Of a DNA stretch of 22,910 bases, positions 5,263 through 22,910 are shown piece after piece (positions within the stretch are counted from its first letter, which is position 1; every line of letters begins with the position of its first letter). Both the position numbers and the translations under genes were made by a program. Origin of the DNA: Candidatus Heimdallarchaeota archaeon (GTDB lineage: Archaea; Asgardarchaeota; Heimdallarchaeia; Hodarchaeales; Hodarchaeaceae); assembly GCA_048881705.1 (NCBI GenBank), contig JBHLSH010000066.1:1-22910 (forward strand), in the 5' to 3' direction. The notes beneath the pieces were generated by a model, which worked only from the letters and a program-made list of their open reading frames with translations, had not been told where the DNA came from and did not search any database.

Positions 5263-6552
5263 ATGATAACCAAAGGTACACTTGAAAAAGGCACGTTTCT
5301 TGAATTACCCTTCGATCAAAAGTTTAGTGGTCTAGATGAAGGATTCGAGAAATGGTTAGATGTGGCTAAAGATCGGATTTTTTCGCTTGCAGCAGGAAAT
5401 CGGATCGCTCAGATAGCTCCGCGAATAATGCGAATCGGATATGCCAAGGTTTTATATGGCGTAAATCAACTGGGGGCCGATGTGGAAGCTTCAAAATCAT
5501 TTGTGATATTCGCGCCTGACGGAACCTGTTCGTTTAATGGCGTAAGAACCAAGCGTGGCTTTGCTTACGGTGCAGTCCTAGATATGGAATTTGATGGACT
5601 TATAGCAACTAATAACTCCATGCCTAATGGATGTGGATACAGTCTTTACGAGCTAATCGACCCCCTGCCAGATGATCAGTTATTCAATCTAATCAATTCG
5701 GCGTATACGAGGTTAGGAGAAGATCAGATAAATCAATTAGGCAAAGGTAACCATTTTTCTGCGATTTATTATGTTAAAGACCCCTTGTCAGGTGAAGATA
5801 GCGGACGTCGGTTTGTTGCTGTTCATTGTTCTGGACACGTGGGAACGGATACGCTTTATTATCCCGAGAAGTGGTTGAAAGATACCGCGGGCTACCATGA
5901 AATTCATACCCCTCATGGAAAGGTTATCTTACTAGAAGATGATGCAAAAAGCCTTTACCTCAAAAGATTCCAAAACACAGATACGATAAATACCTTCAAC
6001 AGAGACCATACGATGGAGAGTATATTTAAAAACCAACAGGAATGGCGGATACTAAGCAAAATTACCCATCAAGGATTAATAAATGACGGAAAAGTGCACC
6101 TAACTGGCACTCAAATTGCTGAGGGTATTGTACCGATTGCATTCAATCCTGAAGAGGGCTTGATCGGAGTGGAGATAAAACCTAATCTAAACGCAGGATT
6201 CGTAGATAGGTGGGAATATGGGCAGAAGATTAAGGATATGGGGGTGTACGATAAGGTTAAAGCACTTAATTTCGCTCCCCATGGCGGAGGATATGAATTT
6301 CGATTTCCTTTGGAATACTTTAACGTTCATTTGGGACCAAATGGCATTGATCAATTTGATCTCCAGTTTAAGGGGAACGGTGTCCAATTGCAGTTTAGAA
6401 ATTTCCGAGAAATCCGAAATTGGATGACTTATCGCCGCAAAACTCCACTAGTTCATAAGATGGGGGAATCGGATCTTGTCAAGATTATTTATGATATGCC
6501 ATGTCTCATCCAAATCTATCCGCACCATAATGTGCCCGGCGGTCATTCTTAG
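5263..6552 (+). CDS. Divergent RtcB-family (3'-phosphate/5'-OH) RNA ligase-like protein
   Basis: Colinear matches to RtcB motifs: APD...GFAYGAV (LPD...GFPIGGV), NGCG (DINCG), QLGKGNHF (LGSGNHF), VHCSG (VHTGS), THQG (HRKG), PHGGG (HGAGR). Confidence 0.7.
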   Translation: MITKGTLEKGTFLELPFDQKFSGLDEGFEKWLDVAKDRIFSLAAGNRIAQIAPRIMRIGYAKVLYGVNQLGADVEASKSFVIFAPDGTCSFNGVRTKRGFAYGAVLDMEFDGLIATNNSMPNGCGYSLYELIDPLPDDQLFNLINSAYTRLGEDQINQLGKGNHFSAIYYVKDPLSGEDSGRRFVAVHCSGHVGTDTLYYPEKWLKDTAGYHEIHTPHGKVILLEDDAKSLYLKRFQNTDTINTFNRDHTMESIFKNQQEWRILSKITHQGLINDGKVHLTGTQIAEGIVPIAFNPEEGLIGVEIKPNLNAGFVDRWEYGQKIKDMGVYDKVKALNFAPHGGGYEFRFPLEYFNVHLGPNGIDQFDLQFKGNGVQLQFRNFREIRNWMTYRRKTPLVHKMGESDLVKIIYDMPCLIQIYPHHNVPGGHS

Positions 6553-13087: not shown

Positions 13088-14200
13088 CTGGTCCGGAGTA
13101 GATTTTTTTTTGCCTTGGTTTATGCAACGATTCTCTCCCTAAATTTACTCATGATTTTTGCAACTTTGCAGGACAATATGGATCTCGTGTTTAATCTTGA
13201 AGAAATCGGTCAAATTGATACCCCTGGAATGGCGAGGGATGTCGTTGTAAAAGGGGACGCCGCATTTGTCGCAGCTATGAGTATAACGTCATCCATTAAT
13301 GGAGGTTTGTTCATTTTCAATATAAGTGATCCCTCCAGACCCCAGCTATTAGGACATTTTTTCGATGAGGGAAGTTCACATCGTCTTTTGGTTGAGGATG
13401 ACATCGTGTTTGTTGCCGACAATTTTGGTGGTCTGGAAGTATTCAATGTAAGCAACCTAACAAATCCTGTCAAAATTATCGAAGTCAGCGGAACCATCAA
13501 TGGCTTTTATAAGAAAGAACGTTTTTTATATGCAGCGGATTACAGTGAAGGTCTGTTAATCTTTGATATAACCAATCTAACCAAACCGATGGAAATAACA
13601 CGGTACACGGATTTCGATCATGCTTTGATGCATCTAATTAGAAATAACCTTGCTTATGTATCTGATGATTCTGGTCTTAAAATTTTGGATATATCCAATC
13701 TATCAAATATAACTGAGCTAGTAAGTTATTCTTATGACTATTATGTTTATGATTTGCAATTCGCGGGGGAAATTGCCTATACGGCCTGCGCTCGCTCAAT
13801 TTTTGAAGCCGGGGAGGGAATAAAGATATGGAATGCATCTGATCCCCTGAATTTTGCTTTGATGGGTAGTTTTTTTGATGGAGGGATGGCTTTCGATCTG
13901 CAGATCCTGAACAATTATGCTCTTGTCGCGGATTTTAATGATGGAGTGGAAATAATAGATGTTAGCAATCCTTATAATCCCATTAAAGTCACCAATTACT
14001 ATGACGGGGGAAATGCCACGCAATTGTATGTTGTGGATGATTTAATTTATGTTGCAGATGGTTTTGATGGGCTTGAGATCATAAGAATGATTCCCTCGGA
14101 TGAATGGACCACATCGAGTATAGGAACGCCCAGTTTTGGGCTTTTTTTGGCAGTAGTTGGAATGCTAGGTCTTCTACAATTGAAAAGAAGATTTGATTAA
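13088..14200 (+). CDS. Secreted LVIVD-repeat beta-propeller protein 1 with C-terminal PGF-CTERM-like anchor (start CTG 13088 or TTG 13115)
   Basis: Repeats such as ALVADFNDGVEIIDVSNPYNP. Hydrophobic N-terminus. Tail TTSSIGTPSFG-hydrophobic-KRR. Confidence 0.85.
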   Translation: MVRSRFFFALVYATILSLNLLMIFATLQDNMDLVFNLEEIGQIDTPGMARDVVVKGDAAFVAAMSITSSINGGLFIFNISDPSRPQLLGHFFDEGSSHRLLVEDDIVFVADNFGGLEVFNVSNLTNPVKIIEVSGTINGFYKKERFLYAADYSEGLLIFDITNLTKPMEITRYTDFDHALMHLIRNNLAYVSDDSGLKILDISNLSNITELVSYSYDYYVYDLQFAGEIAYTACARSIFEAGEGIKIWNASDPLNFALMGSFFDGGMAFDLQILNNYALVADFNDGVEIIDVSNPYNPIKVTNYYDGGNATQLYVVDDLIYVADGFDGLEIIRMIPSDEWTTSSIGTPSFGLFLAVVGMLGLLQLKRRFD

Positions 14201-14221
14201 ACCATGAGAGGACACTCAGGT

Positions 14222-15304
14222 ATGAAACGCGGTTTATATAGAATTACCACAGTCTTAGTGGTTTTTACTCTCCTTTTTTCTTTTTTAGGCAACGTTGTGG
14301 TAGGATCGGATGGAAACGGATACCTTGAGGAAGTAGCACAGATTGATACTGGGGGATGGGCACTCGACGTATGGGTTGAAGCTGGCTTCGCATATCTAAC
14401 AGATTTAGAGGCGGGATTTCGAATATATGATGTCACTAATCCTTCTAGCCCAGAAGAACTCGCCCACATGTTTTCTTCAGGTGGAGCCCATCAAATGTTT
14501 CTTGATACAATTAATGATCTTGTTTATCTTGGGAACCATGTTCACGGCTTGGAAATCATTAACGTGAGTGACCCCAACAATCCAAAAGAGATTGGGCATA
14601 CATACAATGAGGGGGGGTATGTAACCGATGCCTACCTGGTAGATAATCTTCTGTATATCATCGAACACGGATTAACGGTTCTGGATGTAAGCGACCCTGG
14701 TAATCCAGTGAGATTAGGACATTTTTCTGGTGATGATTATATGAGTGACATAAAAGTGGTTGGAAATTATGGCTATTTGTCGCATGGGCAGTTTGGGCTA
14801 GATATACTTGATATTTCTGACCCAACAAACATAACCAAAGTGGGTACATATGTCGATGAAGGTATTGCAAATAATGCTGAGGTCATCGGGAATCTACTAT
14901 TTTTAGCTGATTGGGATGCTGGTTTAAAGATATTAAATATTTCGGATCGTAATTTTCCTGCCAAAATTGGGGAGTCCGAGAGCATTACTGATTATGCCGG
15001 AGATCTGACTATTTTTGGTGATCTGGCGTTTGTGGGAGGATGGGTGGATGGTTTATACGTATATAACATTAGTAATCCAATGCGGCCAGTTCTGAAAACT
15101 AGTTATCATGACGGAGGTAAAGCAACTGGAGTTTATGTTCAGGATGACCTGGTATATGTCGCAGATACCACGGAAGGTCTTGAAATCCTTAAGATAAGAT
15201 CCGGTACAACAGAAACCTCGACATCACTAGAATTTATGCTTCCATTTGCTTTATGTGTCGGTTTGGTTTGCGTGCATCGGAAAATTGGGAAAAAAGGGGT
15301 TTAA
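14222..15304 (+). CDS. Secreted LVIVD-repeat beta-propeller protein 2 with C-terminal TM anchor (alternative start ATG 14204)
   Basis: Signal peptide MKRGLYRITTVLVVFTLLFSFLG. Repeats GLDILDISDPTN, AYLTDLEAGFRIYDVTNPSSP. Tail TTETSTSLEF-hydrophobic-RKIGKK. Confidence 0.87.
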   Translation: MKRGLYRITTVLVVFTLLFSFLGNVVVGSDGNGYLEEVAQIDTGGWALDVWVEAGFAYLTDLEAGFRIYDVTNPSSPEELAHMFSSGGAHQMFLDTINDLVYLGNHVHGLEIINVSDPNNPKEIGHTYNEGGYVTDAYLVDNLLYIIEHGLTVLDVSDPGNPVRLGHFSGDDYMSDIKVVGNYGYLSHGQFGLDILDISDPTNITKVGTYVDEGIANNAEVIGNLLFLADWDAGLKILNISDRNFPAKIGESESITDYAGDLTIFGDLAFVGGWVDGLYVYNISNPMRPVLKTSYHDGGKATGVYVQDDLVYVADTTEGLEILKIRSGTTETSTSLEFMLPFALCVGLVCVHRKIGKKGV

Positions 15305-15305
15305 A

Positions 15306-16433
15306 GTGAAACATAACAGCCATTTGATCCTTTTATGTCTTCTGATTATATCATTGAGTCCATTCACGGCGTTTCGGGGTCAAAACAGTGATCGAGAATT
15401 GGTTCTTTCAAAAATCGGAGAGCTTCCGACAGGCGGGGACGCCTATGATGTTTGGATAGATGAAGATAGGGAACTAGCGGTTCTAACTTGTGGTTATTAC
15501 GGAGTAAGGATTGTGAACGTAAGTGATCCCTCCAATCCAATCGAATTATCCCATATACCTGAACCACCAGCCGTGATTGAAACAGGTCATACCACAGGTT
15601 ACGCCCATCAATTCTACCTCGATCAGAAAATGGCATATGTTGGGGATGGAGCTGCTGGATTGACGGTAATAGACACTACAGATCCTAGGAACCCAAGTAT
15701 TATTTCCCATTATTCAGGCGGGTATGCATGGGATATCGAGGTTCAACAAGCGGTTGCTTTCGTTTCAAGCGGGTTCCTCGGTAATGGAGCAGGCCTTTTG
15801 ATACTTGATTTTTCAAATCCAACATCTCCAATATTGATGGCAAACTATAGCACAGAAGGTGACATTACCTCTGTTGAGGTAAAAGGAGATCTTGCGTTCC
15901 TCGCTGATTATGACAAGGGACTTGTTGTTCTAGACGTAAGTAACGCCTCCAACCCAGTATTGAAAGAAGAGTTCCCTGGGCCTCAAAATAGTGGAGTAAG
16001 TTACGTGGAAGTTGCGGATAACCTATTGTATTCAACTAGCTGGACTAGTGGACTGAGAATCTGGAATATCACCGTACCTTCTGAGATTTCAATCGTGGCC
16101 GATTATTCCAAGTTTGAGTCGTATTTCTCAGTTAGGGTTTTTGATGATTATGCGTTTCTAGGGGGAATGAATGACGGTTTAATAGTTTTGAATGTTAGTG
16201 ATCCCGTAAATCCTGTTGAAATCGGACGTTACTCCGAAGGGGGCAGAGTTAACAGCGCCTATGCTGTGAATAACCTGATTTATGTTGCAGATCAGGATAG
16301 CGGATTGTTAATCTTAAAAATTCAGTCTTCTATTGATACAACTTCCGCTGCCCAGACCTCTTTTGGATCTGAGATCATTGTTATAGGTCTGTTTTTATTC
16401 CTTGGATTCAAGAGGAAACGAAAAGGACAATAA
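15306..16433 (+). CDS. Secreted LVIVD-repeat beta-propeller protein 3 with C-terminal anchor (start placed at GTG 15306)
   Basis: GTG directly after the upstream TAA gives signal peptide MKHNSHLILLCLLIISLSPF. Repeats AFLADYDKGLVVLDVSNASNP. Tail TTSAAQTSFG-hydrophobic-KRKRK. Confidence 0.87.
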   Translation: MKHNSHLILLCLLIISLSPFTAFRGQNSDRELVLSKIGELPTGGDAYDVWIDEDRELAVLTCGYYGVRIVNVSDPSNPIELSHIPEPPAVIETGHTTGYAHQFYLDQKMAYVGDGAAGLTVIDTTDPRNPSIISHYSGGYAWDIEVQQAVAFVSSGFLGNGAGLLILDFSNPTSPILMANYSTEGDITSVEVKGDLAFLADYDKGLVVLDVSNASNPVLKEEFPGPQNSGVSYVEVADNLLYSTSWTSGLRIWNITVPSEISIVADYSKFESYFSVRVFDDYAFLGGMNDGLIVLNVSDPVNPVEIGRYSEGGRVNSAYAVNNLIYVADQDSGLLILKIQSSIDTTSAAQTSFGSEIIVIGLFLFLGFKRKRKGQ

Positions 16434-16501
16434 ATCGAATCAATCGCCAATTGCTCTCGGTACTACTTAAGCTTCGTTATTCCTACGCCCGACATTGGAT
16501 T

Positions 16502-17641
16502 TCAAGAAACTCTGTTTTTGCGAATTTGGGAAGCAACAAGGGCGATCCCTATCAGAGTAACAATTTCAAAACCTGAAGTCGCACTTGTTGGAGCCGTGGA
16601 GTAATCTCTATTATATTGAATGATTTCGACAATGCCATTGGGAAAATTCGTAATATAAGCATAATTTTCGTCTAAATCCAGTGCTAATGTTTGTCCAACA
16701 CTAGTGTAACTTGAAGCATATTGAGGATCCGTCGGATCAGTGACATTAAATACTATTAACTTGTTGTTTTCAAAATCAGTCGTAAAAACTAAGTTGTCAT
16801 TTAAAACCAAGTCCATCAATCTACCTACATCTTGATATGAACCCAATTCTCTTAATTCCGAAGGATTACTAGTGTTGTAGACTAATAAACCTGAAGAATC
16901 AGCCGCAATATAAGCGATGTCTCCAGAAGCAGCAATTGAATTAGCCTTAATATCATATCTGGCAATTTCTGTAATGTTTAACGGATCAGTGATATCTAAT
17001 AGAATAAGTGAGAAATCAGGTTTCCCTTCAAATCCTAGACTATGACTAACATATGCGGTTTCTCCGATCATTTCAATATGGTATATAGGTCCAGTATCAG
17101 TATAATTTGAGACGAGCGAAATGTTATTATGGTCTGTAACATCAAGAACTACCAAGCCAGTTCGATAATCCGCTACAAAGGCATAATTCCCTTTTATTTT
17201 CAGGTCGTGAGCTAGTTGAAAGTCACTAAATTCCCCAATTTCAGTGACAGCGTTGGGATTTGTGATATCATAGATCTCCAATCCATCACAATGATCCGCT
17301 AGAAATAGGGTATTTCCTATAATGACAATGCCGTGGGGTTGACCCCCATCGTAGAATTGATCCAGAATCCGCGGTTCAGAAGGATCAGTGACATCAATTA
17401 AAGAAATTCCTGTGGCATCGGGGCTTACACAACTACCTGGACTCGATCCTGATCCAGAATCGCCAACGATAAGAATATTTGGGCTTTTTCGAATTGTAAA
17501 AGGGCTTTTTCCAACGTCTATTTCGCCCACTTTATTTAAAGTAATATTCTGGACCGTACCTTGTGAATTTTGTATTATTAAAACGGGAGATATCATAAGA
17601 GTAAAAAAACAACAGAATTGTAGATATCTTGATTTAATCAT
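16502..17641 (-). CDS. Secreted LVIVD-repeat beta-propeller protein 4 with C-terminal PGF-CTERM-like anchor (start placed at ATG 17641)
   Basis: GGTGA RBS upstream of ATG 17641. Signal peptide MIKSRYLQFCCFFTLMISPVLII. Repeats AFVADYRTGLVVLDVTD. Tail STAPTSATSGFE-hydrophobic-RKNR. Confidence 0.87.
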   Translation of the reverse strand: MIKSRYLQFCCFFTLMISPVLIIQNSQGTVQNITLNKVGEIDVGKSPFTIRKSPNILIVGDSGSGSSPGSCVSPDATGISLIDVTDPSEPRILDQFYDGGQPHGIVIIGNTLFLADHCDGLEIYDITNPNAVTEIGEFSDFQLAHDLKIKGNYAFVADYRTGLVVLDVTDHNNISLVSNYTDTGPIYHIEMIGETAYVSHSLGFEGKPDFSLILLDITDPLNITEIARYDIKANSIAASGDIAYIAADSSGLLVYNTSNPSELRELGSYQDVGRLMDLVLNDNLVFTTDFENNKLIVFNVTDPTDPQYASSYTSVGQTLALDLDENYAYITNFPNGIVEIIQYNRDYSTAPTSATSGFEIVTLIGIALVASQIRKNRVS

Positions 17642-17924
17642 TATGAATTCACCCCGATAAACCAGTTTATTCAAAGGAGATTGAAGAGAATTCTCATCAG
17701 ATAACCGAAGTTTCATATTAAATACTTCGAGGTTTTGGCAGGCAATCTAATTATACAGTATTTCGAAGTAAAATTCGGTTCTTTCTTTTCTAGCCCTAAA
17801 TTTACTTAGCCAAGACTTAGGTTTCGGCCTTTGAAATGAATTTGAACCAAATATCCGTGAATAATTTGATATGCCCAATTGCCTCCCTCGGACCAATATG
17901 CTTCCTCTTATTTCCGAGATGATC

Positions 17925-20900
17925 TCAAGAACACACTATACACTGAGCGATAACTTCTTCACCCTTCAATTTGACTCTTACTCGACCGCAGTCATTGCAA
18001 ACGTTTGTTTTGCATTTACGGCACTGCTGGAGGTGTTCAGGACAGTATGATTTACTACAACCTTCACAAATGGCCGAACTGTCCTTAGTATTGAATTTTC
18101 CGCATTCCTGACATTCTACTAGATGAGATGGGGCACAATCTTCGCACACTGGTTCTTCTTTGGTGTTTTTAAATTCATGATTTGAACTAAAGACCCCTTG
18201 ACAAATGATACATTGCCAGGAATGTTCTTTGCAAACGATTTCTGCGTGCCTGGTATCTAAAACCCTGCATGTGCCGCAAAGCTTTTTATTGCAAATGAGA
18301 CAATCATAATCGTGGTCTAGACAGGAGATTTTGCCGCACTCCTCACAGAATGAAATATGCTCACTACAATAGGTGTTAAGACAGGTGGTACAAATAAAAG
18401 TTGGTGGACTAATCTCTGAAGCCAGTATTGTCTGATAGTAATTCTCCGTACTAATCTCAGGCCCGCAACCATCACAATAAAGCTCTGCATTCCCATTATA
18501 AAGATTTAAGTCAATTTCAGAACGTACTACGATTGCACCGTTTTCATTTTCGGCTGCGGGAACAGTGAATGATATAGGAATTAGTAACCTTGGAATCCAA
18601 TATACGGCCTTTTCTTCAATTTTTATGTCCGCTTTGCCAGGCCTATACAAATCCATGGGCGCCCCTTTTTTCTTAAGATTCTCGATTCCTTGATGCAATT
18701 TCGCATATTCGGTTTTTTGCTCCTTAATCATTTCCTCTCGCTTGTTTTCTAATGATCTAAGCTGATTTTGCAGCTCTTTCTTCCTTTCCTCATGACGAAG
18801 GATTTTAGCATCAGCGGTCTCCAAGGACCTTAGAACAGCCTTAATTGATCTACCTTCTGCGGAACGCGCCTTTTTCTCGGCTTGGAGTACTTCAATTCTC
18901 GCAAGGGTTTCGTCAAGACGTTGGTTTTCGGTTTCTATCCTTTCTTCAATTTTACTCATGTCTTTAGAAATCTTAGAGAACGCTTTAGATTCTTTTTTCC
19001 CCGCTAATTTCTCTAATTCGATTATTTCAAACTCACGCAACTTTTTTTGGTAAATGTTCCCCGCTTCGGGAAATGGGGATTGCGTAAAATACCATACAAG
19101 ATTATCAGGCAATTTCGTTATGATTTCCTTGTCAAGAGTATGAAAAACAAAATCATCGTTTGGACTAAGGGTGAGATCCTCCGGAGGTAGCGAAGAAGCG
19201 TGAATGCCTTCAACTGTGGTTTGATCCCACTTTATTTTCGTGCTTAAATCAAATGAACGAGACATGGTTTCTGTGATCTCAACAGGAAAGACAATCGGCC
19301 CCTCTTTTACTTCACGTTTAATATTGATCAGGGTTTTGGAAAAGTATAAAGGAGCATAATACTGGGTTTGTTCGTCAAACTCTATATCAAATCCATCAAC
19401 TTCTGGATTTCCCTGTATACTTAATCTTTCGTAGACAGTGATTGGTACATTCATTTGAGATATTTTCGGTATTAGGAAGCGCTCCGTAATTTTTCCGACA
19501 CCTGGTTTCTTTCTGGTAAATTCGTGTTTGGATGGAACCTTCTCTTCTACCTCAGTTTCGATCTTTTCTTTTTTTCTTCTTTTCTTTGGCTCTGGTTTCG
19601 GGGGACGAAGCGTTAAGGCCTCTATTTCAGAATCTGTTAAGGGGCCCTTGTGTAAACTCAACAGCCATCTGGTTTTGAGCTCGTTAACTCCATATCGTGG
19701 ATTGTATGCTATGAAATTTCCTGGTTTTAATGCCCGAATTTGACTCATCAATTTACGAAAGTCTTCCTCGGATCCTCCGGCACCTTCAAAAACTGGTTTC
19801 AAAGCTCCTTGGACTTTCGCAACATCTTGGTTTGTGGCTAACCTTCCCAGTATCCAAGTTGCGATATTTGACAATCCCCGATAATCTAAATCACCAGGAT
19901 TTTGTGTAGCCAGCACACAACCAAGCCCAGCCGCTCGAGCCTGCTTAAGAATTATTAACAGGGCAGTTTTAGAAGGAGGACTTAATGAACCCGCGGGCAT
20001 GAAACCATATAGCTCATCGAAATACAAAATTGCGCGAAGGCGACTGGTTCCTCCTTTAGACCACACCCACCGCTGTACCTCACCAAGAATTTCAGCAACA
20101 AAGGTACTTTTTTCATCGGAATCCGTAATCTTTCTTAAATCGAATACAATTATCGGAGTCCGTTTCTGTTTCTTCGCGAGTGCAATGAACTTGTCAAAGT
20201 TCAGATCTACTCCTGGAACTGCTCTAACCATCAAAGCATTGATTTTGCGCGCCAAATCGGTACGTTTTACTTTAGAAATGAATTTTTCTACTGCTAACGA
20301 GCCAACTTTTTCAAAGGGTGGATCTTCAATGGCTTCTATGAGGTTTTCAAGCGTCACCGCTTTTTTCTTTTCGACTTCCCAGATATGTCTGATAATATTG
20401 CTCAAAAAGATTACGCGATTATCAGTGGAAGAGGTAGTACCGATACCACATCGAGAAAGGAGCAATTGAATTTTAAGATCTAAAGAGCTAAGTAGTGCAT
20501 CAGGAGATTCAGTCATCAGCTCTTCATAATTGGTAGGCATTTCAAAACTGGGAGTAAGAGATATTTGCACCCCCGCGGCATTCTTTGGGGTGATAAGAAC
20601 AACGGCTACCTTGTTAGAAAACTCTTTTTCGACACTAAGATATTCTGGGCCAAAAGAGTCTTCTAGTTTGTTTTGATATAACTGAATCCATTCTTCTGCT
20701 ATCTCTTCTGGATCCCCCTTACCACGATCTTCAGCTTCAACTTGAGCGTGAATAATCAGAGTATCTTTATCAAATTCACCCAAACCAATTCCTAACGCAC
20801 CAATGTCCCCCTTAGGATCAATCGCAATTACGGGTATATCAGCACGAATAGCTTCCTCAACAATCGACTTACAAACAACAGTTTTACCACTTCCCGAAGC

Positions 20901-20993
20901 GCCCAGAATGGCGGCATGAGTCAAGAAGGTAGTACTCGGAAGTCTAAACTGTTCGTTTCCTATTCTGCCGAGAAAAAAGTCTGGAGCGGCCAT
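17925..20993 (-). CDS. HerA/FtsK-superfamily (DUF87/DUF853-like) P-loop ATPase with coiled coil and C-terminal multi-zinc-finger region
   Basis: HAAILGASGSGKT (Walker A, aa31-38), IAIDPKGD, LYFDELYGF (Walker B), QARAAG (Arg finger), VLATQNPGDLD. Heptad-rich K/E segment. 12 CxxC plus 4 CxxH from aa840 to the end. Confidence 0.85.
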   Translation of the reverse strand: MAAPDFFLGRIGNEQFRLPSTTFLTHAAILGASGSGKTVVCKSIVEEAIRADIPVIAIDPKGDIGALGIGLGEFDKDTLIIHAQVEAEDRGKGDPEEIAEEWIQLYQNKLEDSFGPEYLSVEKEFSNKVAVVLITPKNAAGVQISLTPSFEMPTNYEELMTESPDALLSSLDLKIQLLLSRCGIGTTSSTDNRVIFLSNIIRHIWEVEKKKAVTLENLIEAIEDPPFEKVGSLAVEKFISKVKRTDLARKINALMVRAVPGVDLNFDKFIALAKKQKRTPIIVFDLRKITDSDEKSTFVAEILGEVQRWVWSKGGTSRLRAILYFDELYGFMPAGSLSPPSKTALLIILKQARAAGLGCVLATQNPGDLDYRGLSNIATWILGRLATNQDVAKVQGALKPVFEGAGGSEEDFRKLMSQIRALKPGNFIAYNPRYGVNELKTRWLLSLHKGPLTDSEIEALTLRPPKPEPKKRRKKEKIETEVEEKVPSKHEFTRKKPGVGKITERFLIPKISQMNVPITVYERLSIQGNPEVDGFDIEFDEQTQYYAPLYFSKTLINIKREVKEGPIVFPVEITETMSRSFDLSTKIKWDQTTVEGIHASSLPPEDLTLSPNDDFVFHTLDKEIITKLPDNLVWYFTQSPFPEAGNIYQKKLREFEIIELEKLAGKKESKAFSKISKDMSKIEERIETENQRLDETLARIEVLQAEKKARSAEGRSIKAVLRSLETADAKILRHEERKKELQNQLRSLENKREEMIKEQKTEYAKLHQGIENLKKKGAPMDLYRPGKADIKIEEKAVYWIPRLLIPISFTVPAAENENGAIVVRSEIDLNLYNGNAELYCDGCGPEISTENYYQTILASEISPPTFICTTCLNTYCSEHISFCEECGKISCLDHDYDCLICNKKLCGTCRVLDTRHAEIVCKEHSWQCIICQGVFSSNHEFKNTKEEPVCEDCAPSHLVECQECGKFNTKDSSAICEGCSKSYCPEHLQQCRKCKTNVCNDCGRVRVKLKGEEVIAQCIVCS

Positions 20994-21208
20994 ATCGACA
21001 TCCTTTCCGTGTGTAATAACGGTTTATTGAGAAAACTTACGGTTTCTAACTCTTAAAACATTTCCGTGAGCCTTTTAAAACTGCTCTTTCTCAAAAAAAT
21101 ATAAAGAATCCAAACAGATATAGCAATAAAAGGACTACAGAAAAGGTGAAAGTCTAAAATATAAGTATACTTGACAGCGGTAAGTGTATAAACTTAATTG
21201 GTGGGTTT

Positions 21209-21787
21209 ATGGTTAACATAGGTATTCTGGGTGACATGAACTGCGGGAAAACGAGCGTTTTTGTGAATTTCATGAATGAGCTAACTTCCGCTGATGAACG
21301 GATCTTGGCAGGTGCGCCGGGCGGTCCGGAAATGTATACCACTCAAACCGTAGATTTCATCCGTTTTTCATGGAAAGGATTTATACACGTACTATACGGA
21401 ACTGGAGGCCATAAAACCCCCATAACAGATTATTACAGATTGTACGTGCTTCGTAATGCTAATCGCTTTGTCTGTATGTTCGATCTATCAGAACCACTAG
21501 AGAATCAAATTAGGTTTTATGATGACATAGAAATTCCCTCAAAACAGATCAGTATCTATCTCAACAAGTATGATCTTGCTCAGGATAAAGCGGACAATTA
21601 TAGGGCCGAGGTGCAAGATTATTTTCTTTCCAAGAAAAAGAAACTTGTTAAGGACATACTGGTAACGGTAGCGGTTAAAAAGCCCGAGTTTGAAGAGGAA
21701 AGGAAAAATTGCCAGCGGGGGATTCTCAATCTTTGTGAATTTGATGCAGAGAGTTCTGCGTTCGATGTTTGGGAAGGGCAAGGATAG
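21209..21787 (+). CDS. Small GTPase of the MglA/CvnD-like type
   Basis: G1 ILGDMNCGKTS, switch-I TTQTVDF (cf. TLFFDF / TVAMDF), G3 LYGTGGH (cf. LYTVPGQ / LFGTPGQ), G4 NKYD, G5 TVAV (cf. AVA). Confidence 0.8.
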   Translation: MVNIGILGDMNCGKTSVFVNFMNELTSADERILAGAPGGPEMYTTQTVDFIRFSWKGFIHVLYGTGGHKTPITDYYRLYVLRNANRFVCMFDLSEPLENQIRFYDDIEIPSKQISIYLNKYDLAQDKADNYRAEVQDYFLSKKKKLVKDILVTVAVKKPEFEEERKNCQRGILNLCEFDAESSAFDVWEGQG

Positions 21788-21794
21788 CTCAAGA

Positions 21795-21801
21795 GGAGGT
21801 G
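21795..21801 (+). promoter_or_regulatory. Strong Shine-Dalgarno site GGAGGTG
   Basis: GGAGGTG ends 7 nt before ATG 21809. Confidence 0.75.
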
Positions 21802-21808
21802 GAGATAC

Positions 21809-22720
21809 ATGTCAGAAGAAGATCCATTTGAGCGATTAGTTGGTACTCTCCAAGTTATTGAACATTATGATCGAGCCTTATGTCTGATTGCGATCTATCT
21901 GGGTCAACGTGCAGACCAGAATACAATTAAGGGAATCACGGAAATTTATACAGCGCTTCTAGGCCGTCCACAGGGAATTACGACCGCCAGAGTCAGGGGA
22001 TACATCACTTCGATGGTTAATGTGGATATTCTAGAAAGAGAACGGGAGCAGATAATCAGCTCCACCAAAGTTTCATTTCACACGATAAGCCCTCTTGGTG
22101 AATTAGCACTTTTGTACATATTAGTCACTTTCGTTACCCCTGACCCGCTACAAATAGAATGGGATCTAGAAAGATTCAAAGAAAAATTATCAATGCCAGA
22201 CAATATAACCAATGAAGAATCGGTCATTCGATTCTTGGTCGATACAATGATATCAAACGAAAAGATCCTTGATAAGGTGTTATCAGATCTGTTAACTGGA
22301 AAGGATCCTGAGAAAATTCGAACAAAGCAATTGATTTTTGAAACCCCAAAGACTTTTAGTGGAAAGAGCCTAGCTTTTAAAATTTTTGAGGATTTAATTT
22401 GGGATTATTTAAGTTTGGGGACTGGATTCTCGAAGAAAGCGTTGGCTGCACGTTTTAAGGGAACGTCTGTAGGAGGTTCTCTCAATAAATTAAGCCCCTA
22501 TATTATTGAAGAAACCTACGGAAAATTACGTTATTATAGGATATCGTTGTTAGGGATTTATATCCTACCTATTCTTGCATTCATTATTCGTCGTTTATCT
22601 ATTGAGAGGTCAGTTTTACCATCGATTTTATCTTCTCGGATAGACATAGAGAAAAATCCTTGGCTCAGTCTCGTTGAGCAAGCAAAAAAATTCTTCAAGA
22701 CTCTCTATACTCTTCCATGA
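21809..22720 (+). CDS. Hypothetical protein with two putative winged-helix domains
   Basis: Segment 1: ITTARVRGYITSMVNVDILERE...FHTISPLG. Segment 2: FSKKALAARF...VGGSLNKLSPYIIEETYGKLRYYRISLLG. Both show the recognition helix-wing-(Y/F)x(I/L)(S/T)xxG pattern. Confidence 0.55.
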   Translation: MSEEDPFERLVGTLQVIEHYDRALCLIAIYLGQRADQNTIKGITEIYTALLGRPQGITTARVRGYITSMVNVDILEREREQIISSTKVSFHTISPLGELALLYILVTFVTPDPLQIEWDLERFKEKLSMPDNITNEESVIRFLVDTMISNEKILDKVLSDLLTGKDPEKIRTKQLIFETPKTFSGKSLAFKIFEDLIWDYLSLGTGFSKKALAARFKGTSVGGSLNKLSPYIIEETYGKLRYYRISLLGIYILPILAFIIRRLSIERSVLPSILSSRIDIEKNPWLSLVEQAKKFFKTLYTLP

Positions 22721-22910
22721 GAGTGATATTTGTGTTAGTTGTTTTGGATGAAGACGGCAAGAAAAATTTTCTCCCTTTGGTAGATTTTCACACTCATATA
22801 GGGAAAGTGAGAATTCAGACAACATCTGGAACCTCTCAAAGGGTTAACAATCCCAAGGACATTCTTGCCCTCTACTCCAAACTCCAGTTTGAGATTCACA
22901 AAAGAATAGA
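22717..22910 (+). CDS. Partial gene running off the right edge; probable amidohydrolase-superfamily metallohydrolase
   Basis: ATGA start/stop overlap with the upstream gene. Manual translation MRVIFVLVVLDEDGKKNFLPLVDFHTHIGKVRIQ...KRI is open to the edge and contains a DxHxH motif. Confidence 0.6.
   Translation, partial: MRVIFVLVVLDEDGKKNFLPLVDFHTHIGKVRIQTTSGTSQRVNNPKDILALYSKLQFEIHKRI

Follow-up and report, generated by a model that had tools for sequence, protein, structure and literature searches.

Members of the HerA/FtsK class of ATPases translocate DNA or peptides, and winged-helix and zinc-finger partners are compatible with either substrate. In the PafA/Dop system, adjoining ligase and hydrolase activities serve reversible conjugation. 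Among known archaea, the Asgard group, and the Hodarchaeales in particular, is the most closely related to eukaryotes, and its members carry many small GTPases. Structural surveys of Asgard GTPases have described classes resembling Rab, Rag/Arf and MglA, together with Roadblock and longin partners, and no HerA-class effector (PMC10933270); the literature we searched yielded no Asgard GTPase effector, and a HerA/FtsK-class motor under small-GTPase control was not described in the papers retrieved. Here we analyzed a stretch of 22,910 nucleotides (nt), referred to as the window, which is the whole of contig C66 in a 3.96-Mb, 155-contig metagenome-assembled genome (MAG) of the Hodarchaeales (Heimdallarchaeia), and in which a HerA-class ATPase gene and a small-GTPase gene lie head to head. 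We propose, with a probability of roughly 60%, that the core of this locus is a two-gene switch-and-motor pair in which the ATPase is the effector of the GTPase, and that in the Hodarchaeales this pair is coupled to an amide-bond ligase/hydrolase module. Our literature search found no description of the GTPase-ATPase pair or of the ligase-VWA gene cluster.

Calling of open reading frames (ORFs) placed the ATPase gene, encoding 1022 amino acids (aa), on the minus strand at 17925-20993 and the GTPase gene (192 aa) on the plus strand at 21209-21787. The ATPase is built of four parts. The ATPase domain (aa 1-460; 19614..20993, minus strand), with Walker A (GASGSGKT, aa 31-38) and Walker B (ILYFDE, aa 322-327), is the best-conserved region of the protein and has no N-terminal HAS barrel, since Walker A is already reached at residue 31. 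It is followed on the same strand by a K/P-rich linker (aa 461-500) and a middle domain (aa ~501-640), together at 19074..19613, by a coiled-coil-like segment (aa ~641-790; 18624..19073) that is rich in E, K, L and R with little Pro or Gly at aa ~647-775 and matches the coil models of CENP-Q, Mis12, Rad50 and SMC, and by a zinc-finger region with its preceding segment (aa 833-1022; 17928..18497), in which the 183-aa tail at aa 840-1022 holds 28 Cys, 12 CxxC and 4 CxxH. The protein scored 34.8 bits with PF01935 (DUF87, the HerA central domain), whose cut-off is 23.2, and also matched PF05872 (HerA_C), which together with the coil-model matches and the 28-Cys tail bears out a reading made earlier from the sequence alone (hereafter the sequence-only reading), in which the minus-strand gene was taken to encode a HerA-class ATPase domain followed by a coiled coil and a zinc finger. 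A PDB search gave weak matches to the YjgR and HerA chains 11kk and 8wiv and found no solved homologue of the C-terminal half. The Cys pairs and both Walker motifs were invariant in an alignment of 33 relatives, and the four-part architecture extended over the whole protein in relatives with as little as 28-34% identity, including Loki CR_4 and a Thermoprotei MAG. A stray 89-codon fragment in the sister genome G001 (G001:C3:157595-157861), 80% identical to the last zinc fingers (aa 934-1022) and interrupted by an in-frame TGA, looks like a decayed partial duplicate.

The ATPase domain also weakly matched defence HerA and mad8 models, which would suit a HerA-based anti-phage defence or mobile-element locus. 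However, the generic ATPase core alone produced these matches, and the five partner proteins gave no PADLOC hit. No Sir2, nuclease or NurA gene adjoins the ATPase gene (NurA was not found in the window, and with the HAS barrel missing the arrangement departs from the canonical HerA-NurA pair), and the locus shows vertical conservation with stable housekeeping flanks across the genus. We consider a defence or mobile-element function highly improbable.

The GTPase carries G1 (GDMNCGKT), G2 (switch-I Thr45/Thr47), G3 (GTGGH), G4 (NKYD) and G5 (TVA) motifs that are conserved in its orthologues. Its G3 retains only the Gly of DxxG, the Asp being missing and a His standing where Ras has Gln. In a Pfam scan no model reached threshold, and among 1.84 billion cluster representatives searched by profile only 31 scored E ≤ 0.001; the nearest solved relatives by sequence, in a PDB profile search, were Der, HflX, RagA, FeoB and Rab. 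The AlphaFold2 model had a predicted local distance difference test score (pLDDT) of 72, with switch loops below 50 when the protein was modelled alone, and its fold matched many G domains at Z 10-12. With G1, G2, G4 and G5 present and invariant and G3 partial, the motifs place the protein among the Ras-superfamily (TRAFAC) small GTPases, in a divergent family without a Pfam model.

The sequence-only reading had called this GTPase MglA-like, a name that proved not to be specific. MglA (5ymx) aligned with the model at Z 10.8 (root-mean-square deviation, rmsd, 4.1 over 154 residues), tied with SelB, HflX, Arl, Arf, Rag and Der among dozens of G domains, and MglA was absent from the best 60 PDB sequence matches and from the best 50 Foldseek matches, so that the assignment is not specifically supported. 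Nor did the locus resemble the described MglA or conservon arrangements: a TxxGQ G3 with its catalytic Gln, and an adjacent Roadblock gene (MglB), would mark the MglA family, and we found GTGGH and no Roadblock gene on the contig or in the related loci searched; Pfam scans of the neighbours showed none of the sensor kinase, Roadblock (CvnB) and DUF742 (CvnC) components of a CvnA-D conservon. It might still be asked whether the GTPase belongs to an MglA- or conservon-type polarity module whose MglB/CvnB-like Roadblock regulator is encoded elsewhere, the ATPase being one of several outputs. The loss of the G3 Asp is shared with MglA, MglA-like GTPases have been reported from Asgard genomes (PMC10933270), and ten Roadblock genes lie on other contigs of this MAG, whose products could act in trans. 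The earlier statement that no Roadblock is encoded here held for the whole of C66, and neither the called genes nor six-frame query searches of the examined loci yielded a Roadblock, sensor kinase or DUF742 gene; moreover, the MglA Gln is replaced by His, as in EF-Tu-type G3 motifs, MglA lies outside the best 60 sequence matches, and the structure does not single it out. On this evidence we regard a polarity module of that kind as quite unlikely.

Comparison across genomes provided the first line of evidence for the pair. The GTPase was present in 17 of the 21 species genomes of the genus, and in all 14 loci examined within it the order ATPase <-> GTPase-wHTH-amidohydrolase-ligase (wHTH, winged helix-turn-helix) was kept to the limit of the contig; three genomes of the same genus (G006, G007 and G011) held neither the GTPase nor an orthologous ATPase. 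Scans of genome and metagenome contigs with the GTPase alignment mostly re-found this genus, and the divergent pair stood on five of eight recovered metagenome contigs, the other three being too short to show the ATPase or showing none. Beyond the genus, Heimdall LC_3 (ATPase 44% and GTPase 44% identical) had the divergent pair within the full six-gene layout (wHTH 28%, amidohydrolase 34%, ligase 46%, VWA 57%), and ENA contig NODE_208 (53% and 51%) had the two genes divergent and 2.9 kb apart, with all six parts clustered and the VWA gene on the far side of the ATPase. In GCA_048938655.1 (57% and 57%) the pair was convergent across a 52-nt gap, with no ligase genes within 8 kb. A tandem order with the GTPase directly upstream and no ligase genes nearby was seen in three Logan contigs (P0050 with P0132), in G133 and in Loki CR_4, at 31-39% identity for the ATPase and 42-47% for the GTPase (G133, 31-39% and 45%; CR_4, 33% and 42%). 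The CR_4 pair is split by a contig break, and contig C90 opens with the GTPase end ...DPFKIWEL; a Shine-Dalgarno sequence comes next, and the ATPase start codon lies 15 nt beyond the GTPase end. In both G133 and CR_4 the GCS2-family ligase gene lies on another contig. The sequence-only reading had named a lack of linkage between homologues of the ATPase and of the GTPase operon in related genomes as an observation that would speak against it, and for the GTPase-ATPase pair we found the opposite, adjacency in divergent, convergent and tandem orders. Since the pair stays adjacent in three orientations across divergent lineages, inherited synteny alone can hardly explain it.

We then considered the predicted complex of the two proteins. 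The GTPase and the C-terminal half of the ATPase (aa 461-1022), each supplied as an alignment, were modelled together with GTP and Mg. The interaction prediction score from aligned errors (ipSAE) was 0.83, 0.79 and 0.78 (median 0.79), whereas the best of three controls scored 0.01; the runs shared 71% or more of their contacts, and the partner pLDDT was at least 82. When the tool was calibrated, the same mark was attained by 58 of 80 solved complexes, as against 2 of 110 mismatched pairs, counts that are only a rough guide to this job because it used our own alignments and a ligand. The score is unlikely to reflect a structure already known to the model, since no homologue of the ATPase C-terminal half has been solved. 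On the GTPase, the predicted contact surface covers switch I, the interswitch strands and the switch II helix (aa 33-85; 21305..21463, plus strand), with contacts at residues 1-3, 33-39, 46-52, 59-61 and 71-85, mostly on the canonical effector face; the switch loops that scored below pLDDT 50 in the lone model fall within this interface, the complex giving an overall and not a per-residue pLDDT. On the ATPase, predicted contacts at 519-525, 578, 592-604, 833-834, 853-866 and 877 bring together the middle domain and a conserved segment, ISTENYYQ..EISPP, located around the first zinc knuckles, and those at aa 833-877 scored best. The model thus supports binding of the GTPase to the ATPase via its switch surface; physical binding and its interface are, at this stage, predictions. 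The contact segment was deleted in the unlinked relative P0127 and kept in the unlinked relative P0103, a partial correlation with linkage.

A further correlate of linkage emerged when linked and unlinked GTPases were compared. All ATPase-linked GTPases carry a C-terminal extension of 10-15 residues with an aromatic motif (SAFDVW, SSFEIW, DPFKIW, DPFSNW or DAFAVW); the window copy occupies aa 179-192 (SAFDVW; 21743..21784, plus strand). Within the linked set F185 is invariant and W188 nearly so, with the LC_3 protein, which ends in ...GYGSFF, as the exception to the F-x-x-W pattern. GTPases with other neighbours (P0051, G397, P0055, P0052 and P0056) have no such tail and end straight after the last helix. 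The tail may dock on the motor domain (aa 1-460), which lies outside the modelled construct of aa 461-1022.

Built on the observed gene structures, domain families, motif conservation, three-orientation adjacency and correlated tail, the proposed mechanism is as follows. In its GTP form, the GTPase would bind the non-catalytic part of the ATPase (aa ~519-604 and 833-877) through its switch I/interswitch/switch II face and so recruit or activate the motor, presumably ring-forming, with the nucleotide bound setting the place or time of motor action; such binding through the effector face is what would make the ATPase the effector of the GTPase. In the Hodarchaeales, where the GTPase gene has come to head an operon that continues with the tandem wHTH, the amidohydrolase, the GCS2 ligase fusion and a CDC48_N+VWA protein, switch and motor would probably be coupled to the product or target of the amide-bond ligase/hydrolase module. 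We infer the GTP dependence, the ring formation, the direction of control and the coupling, at the level of transcription, to the ligase module.

Several observations weigh against this proposal. Binding is a matter of model confidence from a job that contained the C-terminal half of the ATPase alone, the F-x-x-W tail lies outside the confident predicted interface, and the contact segment is conserved in the unlinked P0103. The data gathered gave no indication of the motor substrate, whether DNA or protein. Within the wider GTPase family the residue after GG varies (H, D or Q), and the G3 Asp is missing. Many of the divergent cases come from one genus and are not independent, and in the GTPase tree the ATPase-linked members did not resolve as one well-supported clade (support 84/76), the resolution being too poor to tell a single from a repeated origin of the linkage. 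ATPases of the same architecture also occur with no GTPase nearby (L110, L115, G006, G089, G091 and G116/117), and GTPase profile searches did not find the family in several genomes that hold such lone ATPases. With ATPase relatives present in genomes where this GTPase family was not found, the GTPase is best seen as an accessory of a subset, and the motor can work without the switch.

The lone ATPases also bear on whether the two genes are neighbours only, with the ATPase acting as an independent motor, for instance in DNA transactions, the GTPase regulating another target, the synteny merely inherited and the predicted interface a false positive. Relatives of the GTPase do pair with other proteins, some with a ~215-aa protein and some with an Arf-like GTPase, and the calibration of the complex tool let 2 of 110 mismatched pairs reach the mark. 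Against this stand the three gene orders that keep the pair together down to about 31-39% (ATPase) and 42-45% (GTPase) identity, the C-terminal tail that correlates with linkage, and an ipSAE of 0.79 versus 0.01 for controls with contacts on the effector face. We therefore judge mere neighbourhood unlikely and retain the switch-and-motor pair.

One other branch of the GTPase family (L048:5906-7120, L050:2668-3904 and L098-L100) is always preceded by a conserved ~215-aa protein without a Pfam match, which shows 31-57% identity between lineages, with a 280-aa protein further upstream in some genomes. The two may form a second pair of GTPase and partner, no better characterised than the first. 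At L051:3388-4893, the family member P0056 lies 18 nt upstream of a 307-aa Arf/Ras-like GTPase, a tandem arrangement reminiscent of Rag-type heterodimers. Fusions of the GTPase (P0066, P0067, P0072 and P0078) carry helical or leucine-rich-repeat extensions with no similarity to the ATPase, and so supply no Rosetta-stone evidence for the GTPase-ATPase pair.

Downstream of the GTPase on the plus strand, the window holds a tandem-wHTH ORF (303 aa; 21809-22720) and the first 64 codons of a 482-aa amidohydrolase (22717-22910), open at the contig end. The AlphaFold2 model of the former (pLDDT 89.9) contains two winged-helix domains (aa 3-120 and 184-247) with a helical region between them, as the sequence-only reading had anticipated. 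The first domain matches Rio2 (Z 10.7, rmsd 1.8, 91 aa) and SmtB/CzrA (Z 9.8-10.1), and the second has structural matches at Z 8.3-9.3 (rmsd 1.6-2.1, ~60 aa); in a Foldseek search of the model against the PDB, single winged-helix domains were matched and the whole protein was not. Sequence relatives occurred only in Hodarchaeales-like genomes and MAGs, and single-sequence searches of Pfam, NCBIfam and the PDB returned no match for this protein or for the window amidohydrolase. Directly upstream of the ATPase homologue in GCA_048883345.1 lies a 299-aa protein with two ArsR-type wHTH domains (L113:3445-4344), which echoes the window protein; similarity in sequence was not detected, the wHTH profile showing none in hhalign to the 297-aa and 299-aa proteins of L113 or to the ~215-aa and 280-aa GTPase-partner proteins. 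The amidohydrolase has invariant D23-x-H25-x-H27 (DFHTH at aa 23-27), H176, D208, H239 and D292, including the HxH/His/His/Asp ligand set of a metal hydrolase, as expected of the DxHxH ORF; PF04909 (Amidohydro_2) was matched by 9 of 11 orthologues (best E 9.9e-13), the window copy and its 92% identical twin falling below threshold.

The next gene encodes the GCS2-family ligase, a fusion of ~1000 aa. The part on contig C154 matches PF04107 at 33.3 bits against a cut-off of 21, with part of the domain aligned. It also matches the NCBIfam models for YbdK and for carboxylate-amine ligases, with E values of 1e-13 to 1e-14 but scores that fall far short of the equivalog cut-offs. The C-terminal half gave only weak beta-sandwich likenesses in an Atlas search. 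The ligase domain was found in 238 of 400 Asgard genomes, and the amidohydrolase and VWA genes cluster with it in lineages that have neither ATPase nor GTPase at the locus. Given that the pair is found without the module and the module without the pair, we read the locus as two units joined in Hodarchaeales-like lineages: the wHTH-amidohydrolase-ligase-VWA set is a separate module, widespread in Asgard archaea, from the GTPase-ATPase core. The four-gene system suggested by the sequence-only reading therefore stands as regards the linkage of GTPase and ATPase, and falls as regards the wHTH and amidohydrolase genes as part of a conserved core, as the pair occurs without them.

Extra genes are inserted in the locus in some species of the genus (L028:7346-9497, L031, L034, L025:10519-11625 and L030:7632-8744): an AAT/Ntn-type acyltransferase with a double GNAT between ATPase and GTPase, an M29 aminopeptidase between GTPase and wHTH, and a 370-aa protein of unknown kind between wHTH and amidohydrolase. 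The insertions that can be identified are all amide-bond enzymes. The NODE_208 cluster has two insertions between wHTH and amidohydrolase (L156:2776-3417), one encoding a Cys-rich membrane protein of 213 aa and the other an ORF of 71 aa.

These neighbours raise the question of whether all six parts form one pathway in which the ligase and amidase reversibly modify a target, for instance with an amine or peptide, that the GTPase-gated zinc-finger motor then recognises and remodels, an idea that extends the switch-and-motor pair and does not exclude it. The six genes are clustered in the genus, LC_3 and NODE_208 at 28-68% identity despite rearrangement, and in GCA_048883345.1 the ATPase (41% identical) lies 2.4 kb from the amidohydrolase-GCS2 genes with the GTPase missing. 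The inserted AAT/Ntn hydrolase, GNATs and M29 aminopeptidase would add further amide-bond enzymes, and a ligase beside a hydrolase would suit reversible conjugation by analogy with PafA/Dop; the logic of such a pathway would, tentatively, resemble Pup-PafA/Dop-Mpa or ubiquitin-Cdc48. On the other side, the convergent and tandem lineages have the pair without a nearby ligase gene (on a separate contig in G133 and CR_4), the GCS2 domain occurs in 238 of 400 Asgard genomes and has amidohydrolase and VWA genes clustered with it where ATPase and GTPase are absent, and no gene for a substrate or tag was identified. The clustered cases, moreover, may all be Hodarchaeales relatives, in which event shared descent can explain much of the clustering. 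A single six-part pathway is accordingly possible and, in our estimate, rather doubtful. Its most specific form, an Asgard-specific, GTPase-gated tag-and-remodel machine of the proteostasis or conjugation type, has only a small chance of being right: the ligase and amidohydrolase would reversibly mark the target, the CDC48_N+VWA protein would serve as adaptor and the tandem-wHTH protein as scaffold, and the ring ATPase with its coiled coil and zinc fingers, recruited by the GTP-bound switch, would bind and remodel it. Such a machine would be a prokaryotic analogue of Pup-Mpa and ubiquitin-Cdc48 made of unrelated parts and placed under small-GTPase control.

The layout of the window itself agreed with the sequence-only reading in every coordinate. 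Its head-to-head ATPase and GTPase genes are separated by 215 nt (20994-21208), a spacer that on inspection was AT-rich with TATA-like stretches, the GTPase-wHTH gap of 21 nt contains AGGAGGTGG, and the wHTH stop and amidohydrolase start overlap as ATGA. Alignment of the divergent spacer across the genus revealed a single conserved AT-rich motif at 21070-21092, TTTAAAACTGCTCTT here and TAAAAAATTGCTCTT in most relatives, the rest of the spacer being poorly conserved and a clear operator repeat not being found; a promoter element is one possible reading of the motif. As had been supposed, the host belongs to the Asgard archaea: homologues are named Hodarchaeales, Hodarchaeota or Heimdallarchaeota, and genomes of the same genus include B3_Heim and the closed Heimdall chromosomes CP070695 and CP070760, the labels "Thor", "Hermod" and "Promethearchaeota" on some near-identical sequences being evidently unreliable.

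At 22910 the assembly breaks off inside the operon, and the locus itself goes on. In reverse complement, contig C154 shares exactly 77 nt with the 3' end of C66 (22834-22910), a k-mer-sized assembly overlap; it completes the amidohydrolase to 482 aa in total and then starts the ligase gene via another ATGA overlap. Contig C116 carries the C-terminal part of the ligase, the CDC48_N+VWA protein and a GNAT; a sequence overlap joining C154 to C116 was looked for and not found. Scaffolding in the order C66, C154, C116 is possible from the 77-nt overlap together with the remaining operon genes on C116. In the sister genome G001 (98% identical), the locus is contiguous and runs ATPase <-> GTPase, wHTH, amidohydrolase, 979-aa GCS2 fusion, 426-aa CDC48_N+VWA protein and GNAT. 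Directly beside the ATPase gene on its other side, at 13115-17716, lie four LVIVD beta-propeller paralogues, three in tandem and one convergent (PF08309, E 1e-24 to 1e-39), whose adjacency to the ATPase is not kept in other species of the genus. Further away, a 429-aa ORF at 5263-6552 had no Pfam match at E ≤ 0.001.

Collectively, the GTPase-ATPase pair offers a concrete, cloneable effector candidate with a residue-level predicted interface and a correlated docking-type tail. If the switch-and-motor proposal is right, switch-controlled recruitment of a mechanical ATPase would predate eukaryotes, and the pair would open a way into a ligase module that is widespread in Asgard archaea and as yet uncharacterised.

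Set against the closest described systems, each half of the locus combines familiar and distinct features. With HerA/FtsK ATPases, especially the YjgR/DUF853 type (PF05872) and archaeal HerA (PF01935), the window ATPase shares the P-loop core, Walker A and B and the conserved Arg and Gln, whereas it lacks the HAS barrel and any NurA, Sir2 or nuclease partner and carries ~560 extra residues comprising linker, middle domain, coiled coil and 28-Cys zinc tail. The adjoining GCS2 ligase and metal amidohydrolase recall systems of carboxylate-amine ligase and amidase (YbdK/GCS2 and, by analogy, PafA/Dop); the hydrolase, however, is not a paralogue of the ligase, the ligase is a ~1000-aa fusion, and no tag protein or proteasome link was identified. 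Conservons and MglA/MglB likewise place a prokaryotic small GTPase in a multi-gene cluster, and the G3 Asp is lost here as in MglA, but the window-type loci examined contain no sensor kinase, Roadblock or DUF742 gene. In comparison with Ras-superfamily GTPase-effector pairs (Rab, Arf and Rag; MglA), no GAP or GEF (GTPase-activating protein or guanine nucleotide exchange factor) of known type (Roadblock, longin, TBC or Sec7) adjoins the window GTPase, which reaches threshold with no Pfam family and is set apart by its GTGGH G3, its F-x-x-W tail and its HerA/FtsK-class candidate effector; it nevertheless shares with them a G domain of ~190 aa that contains the P-loop, the switch-I Thr and the NKxD and SAx-like motifs, and a partner predicted to sit on the switch I/interswitch/switch II face.

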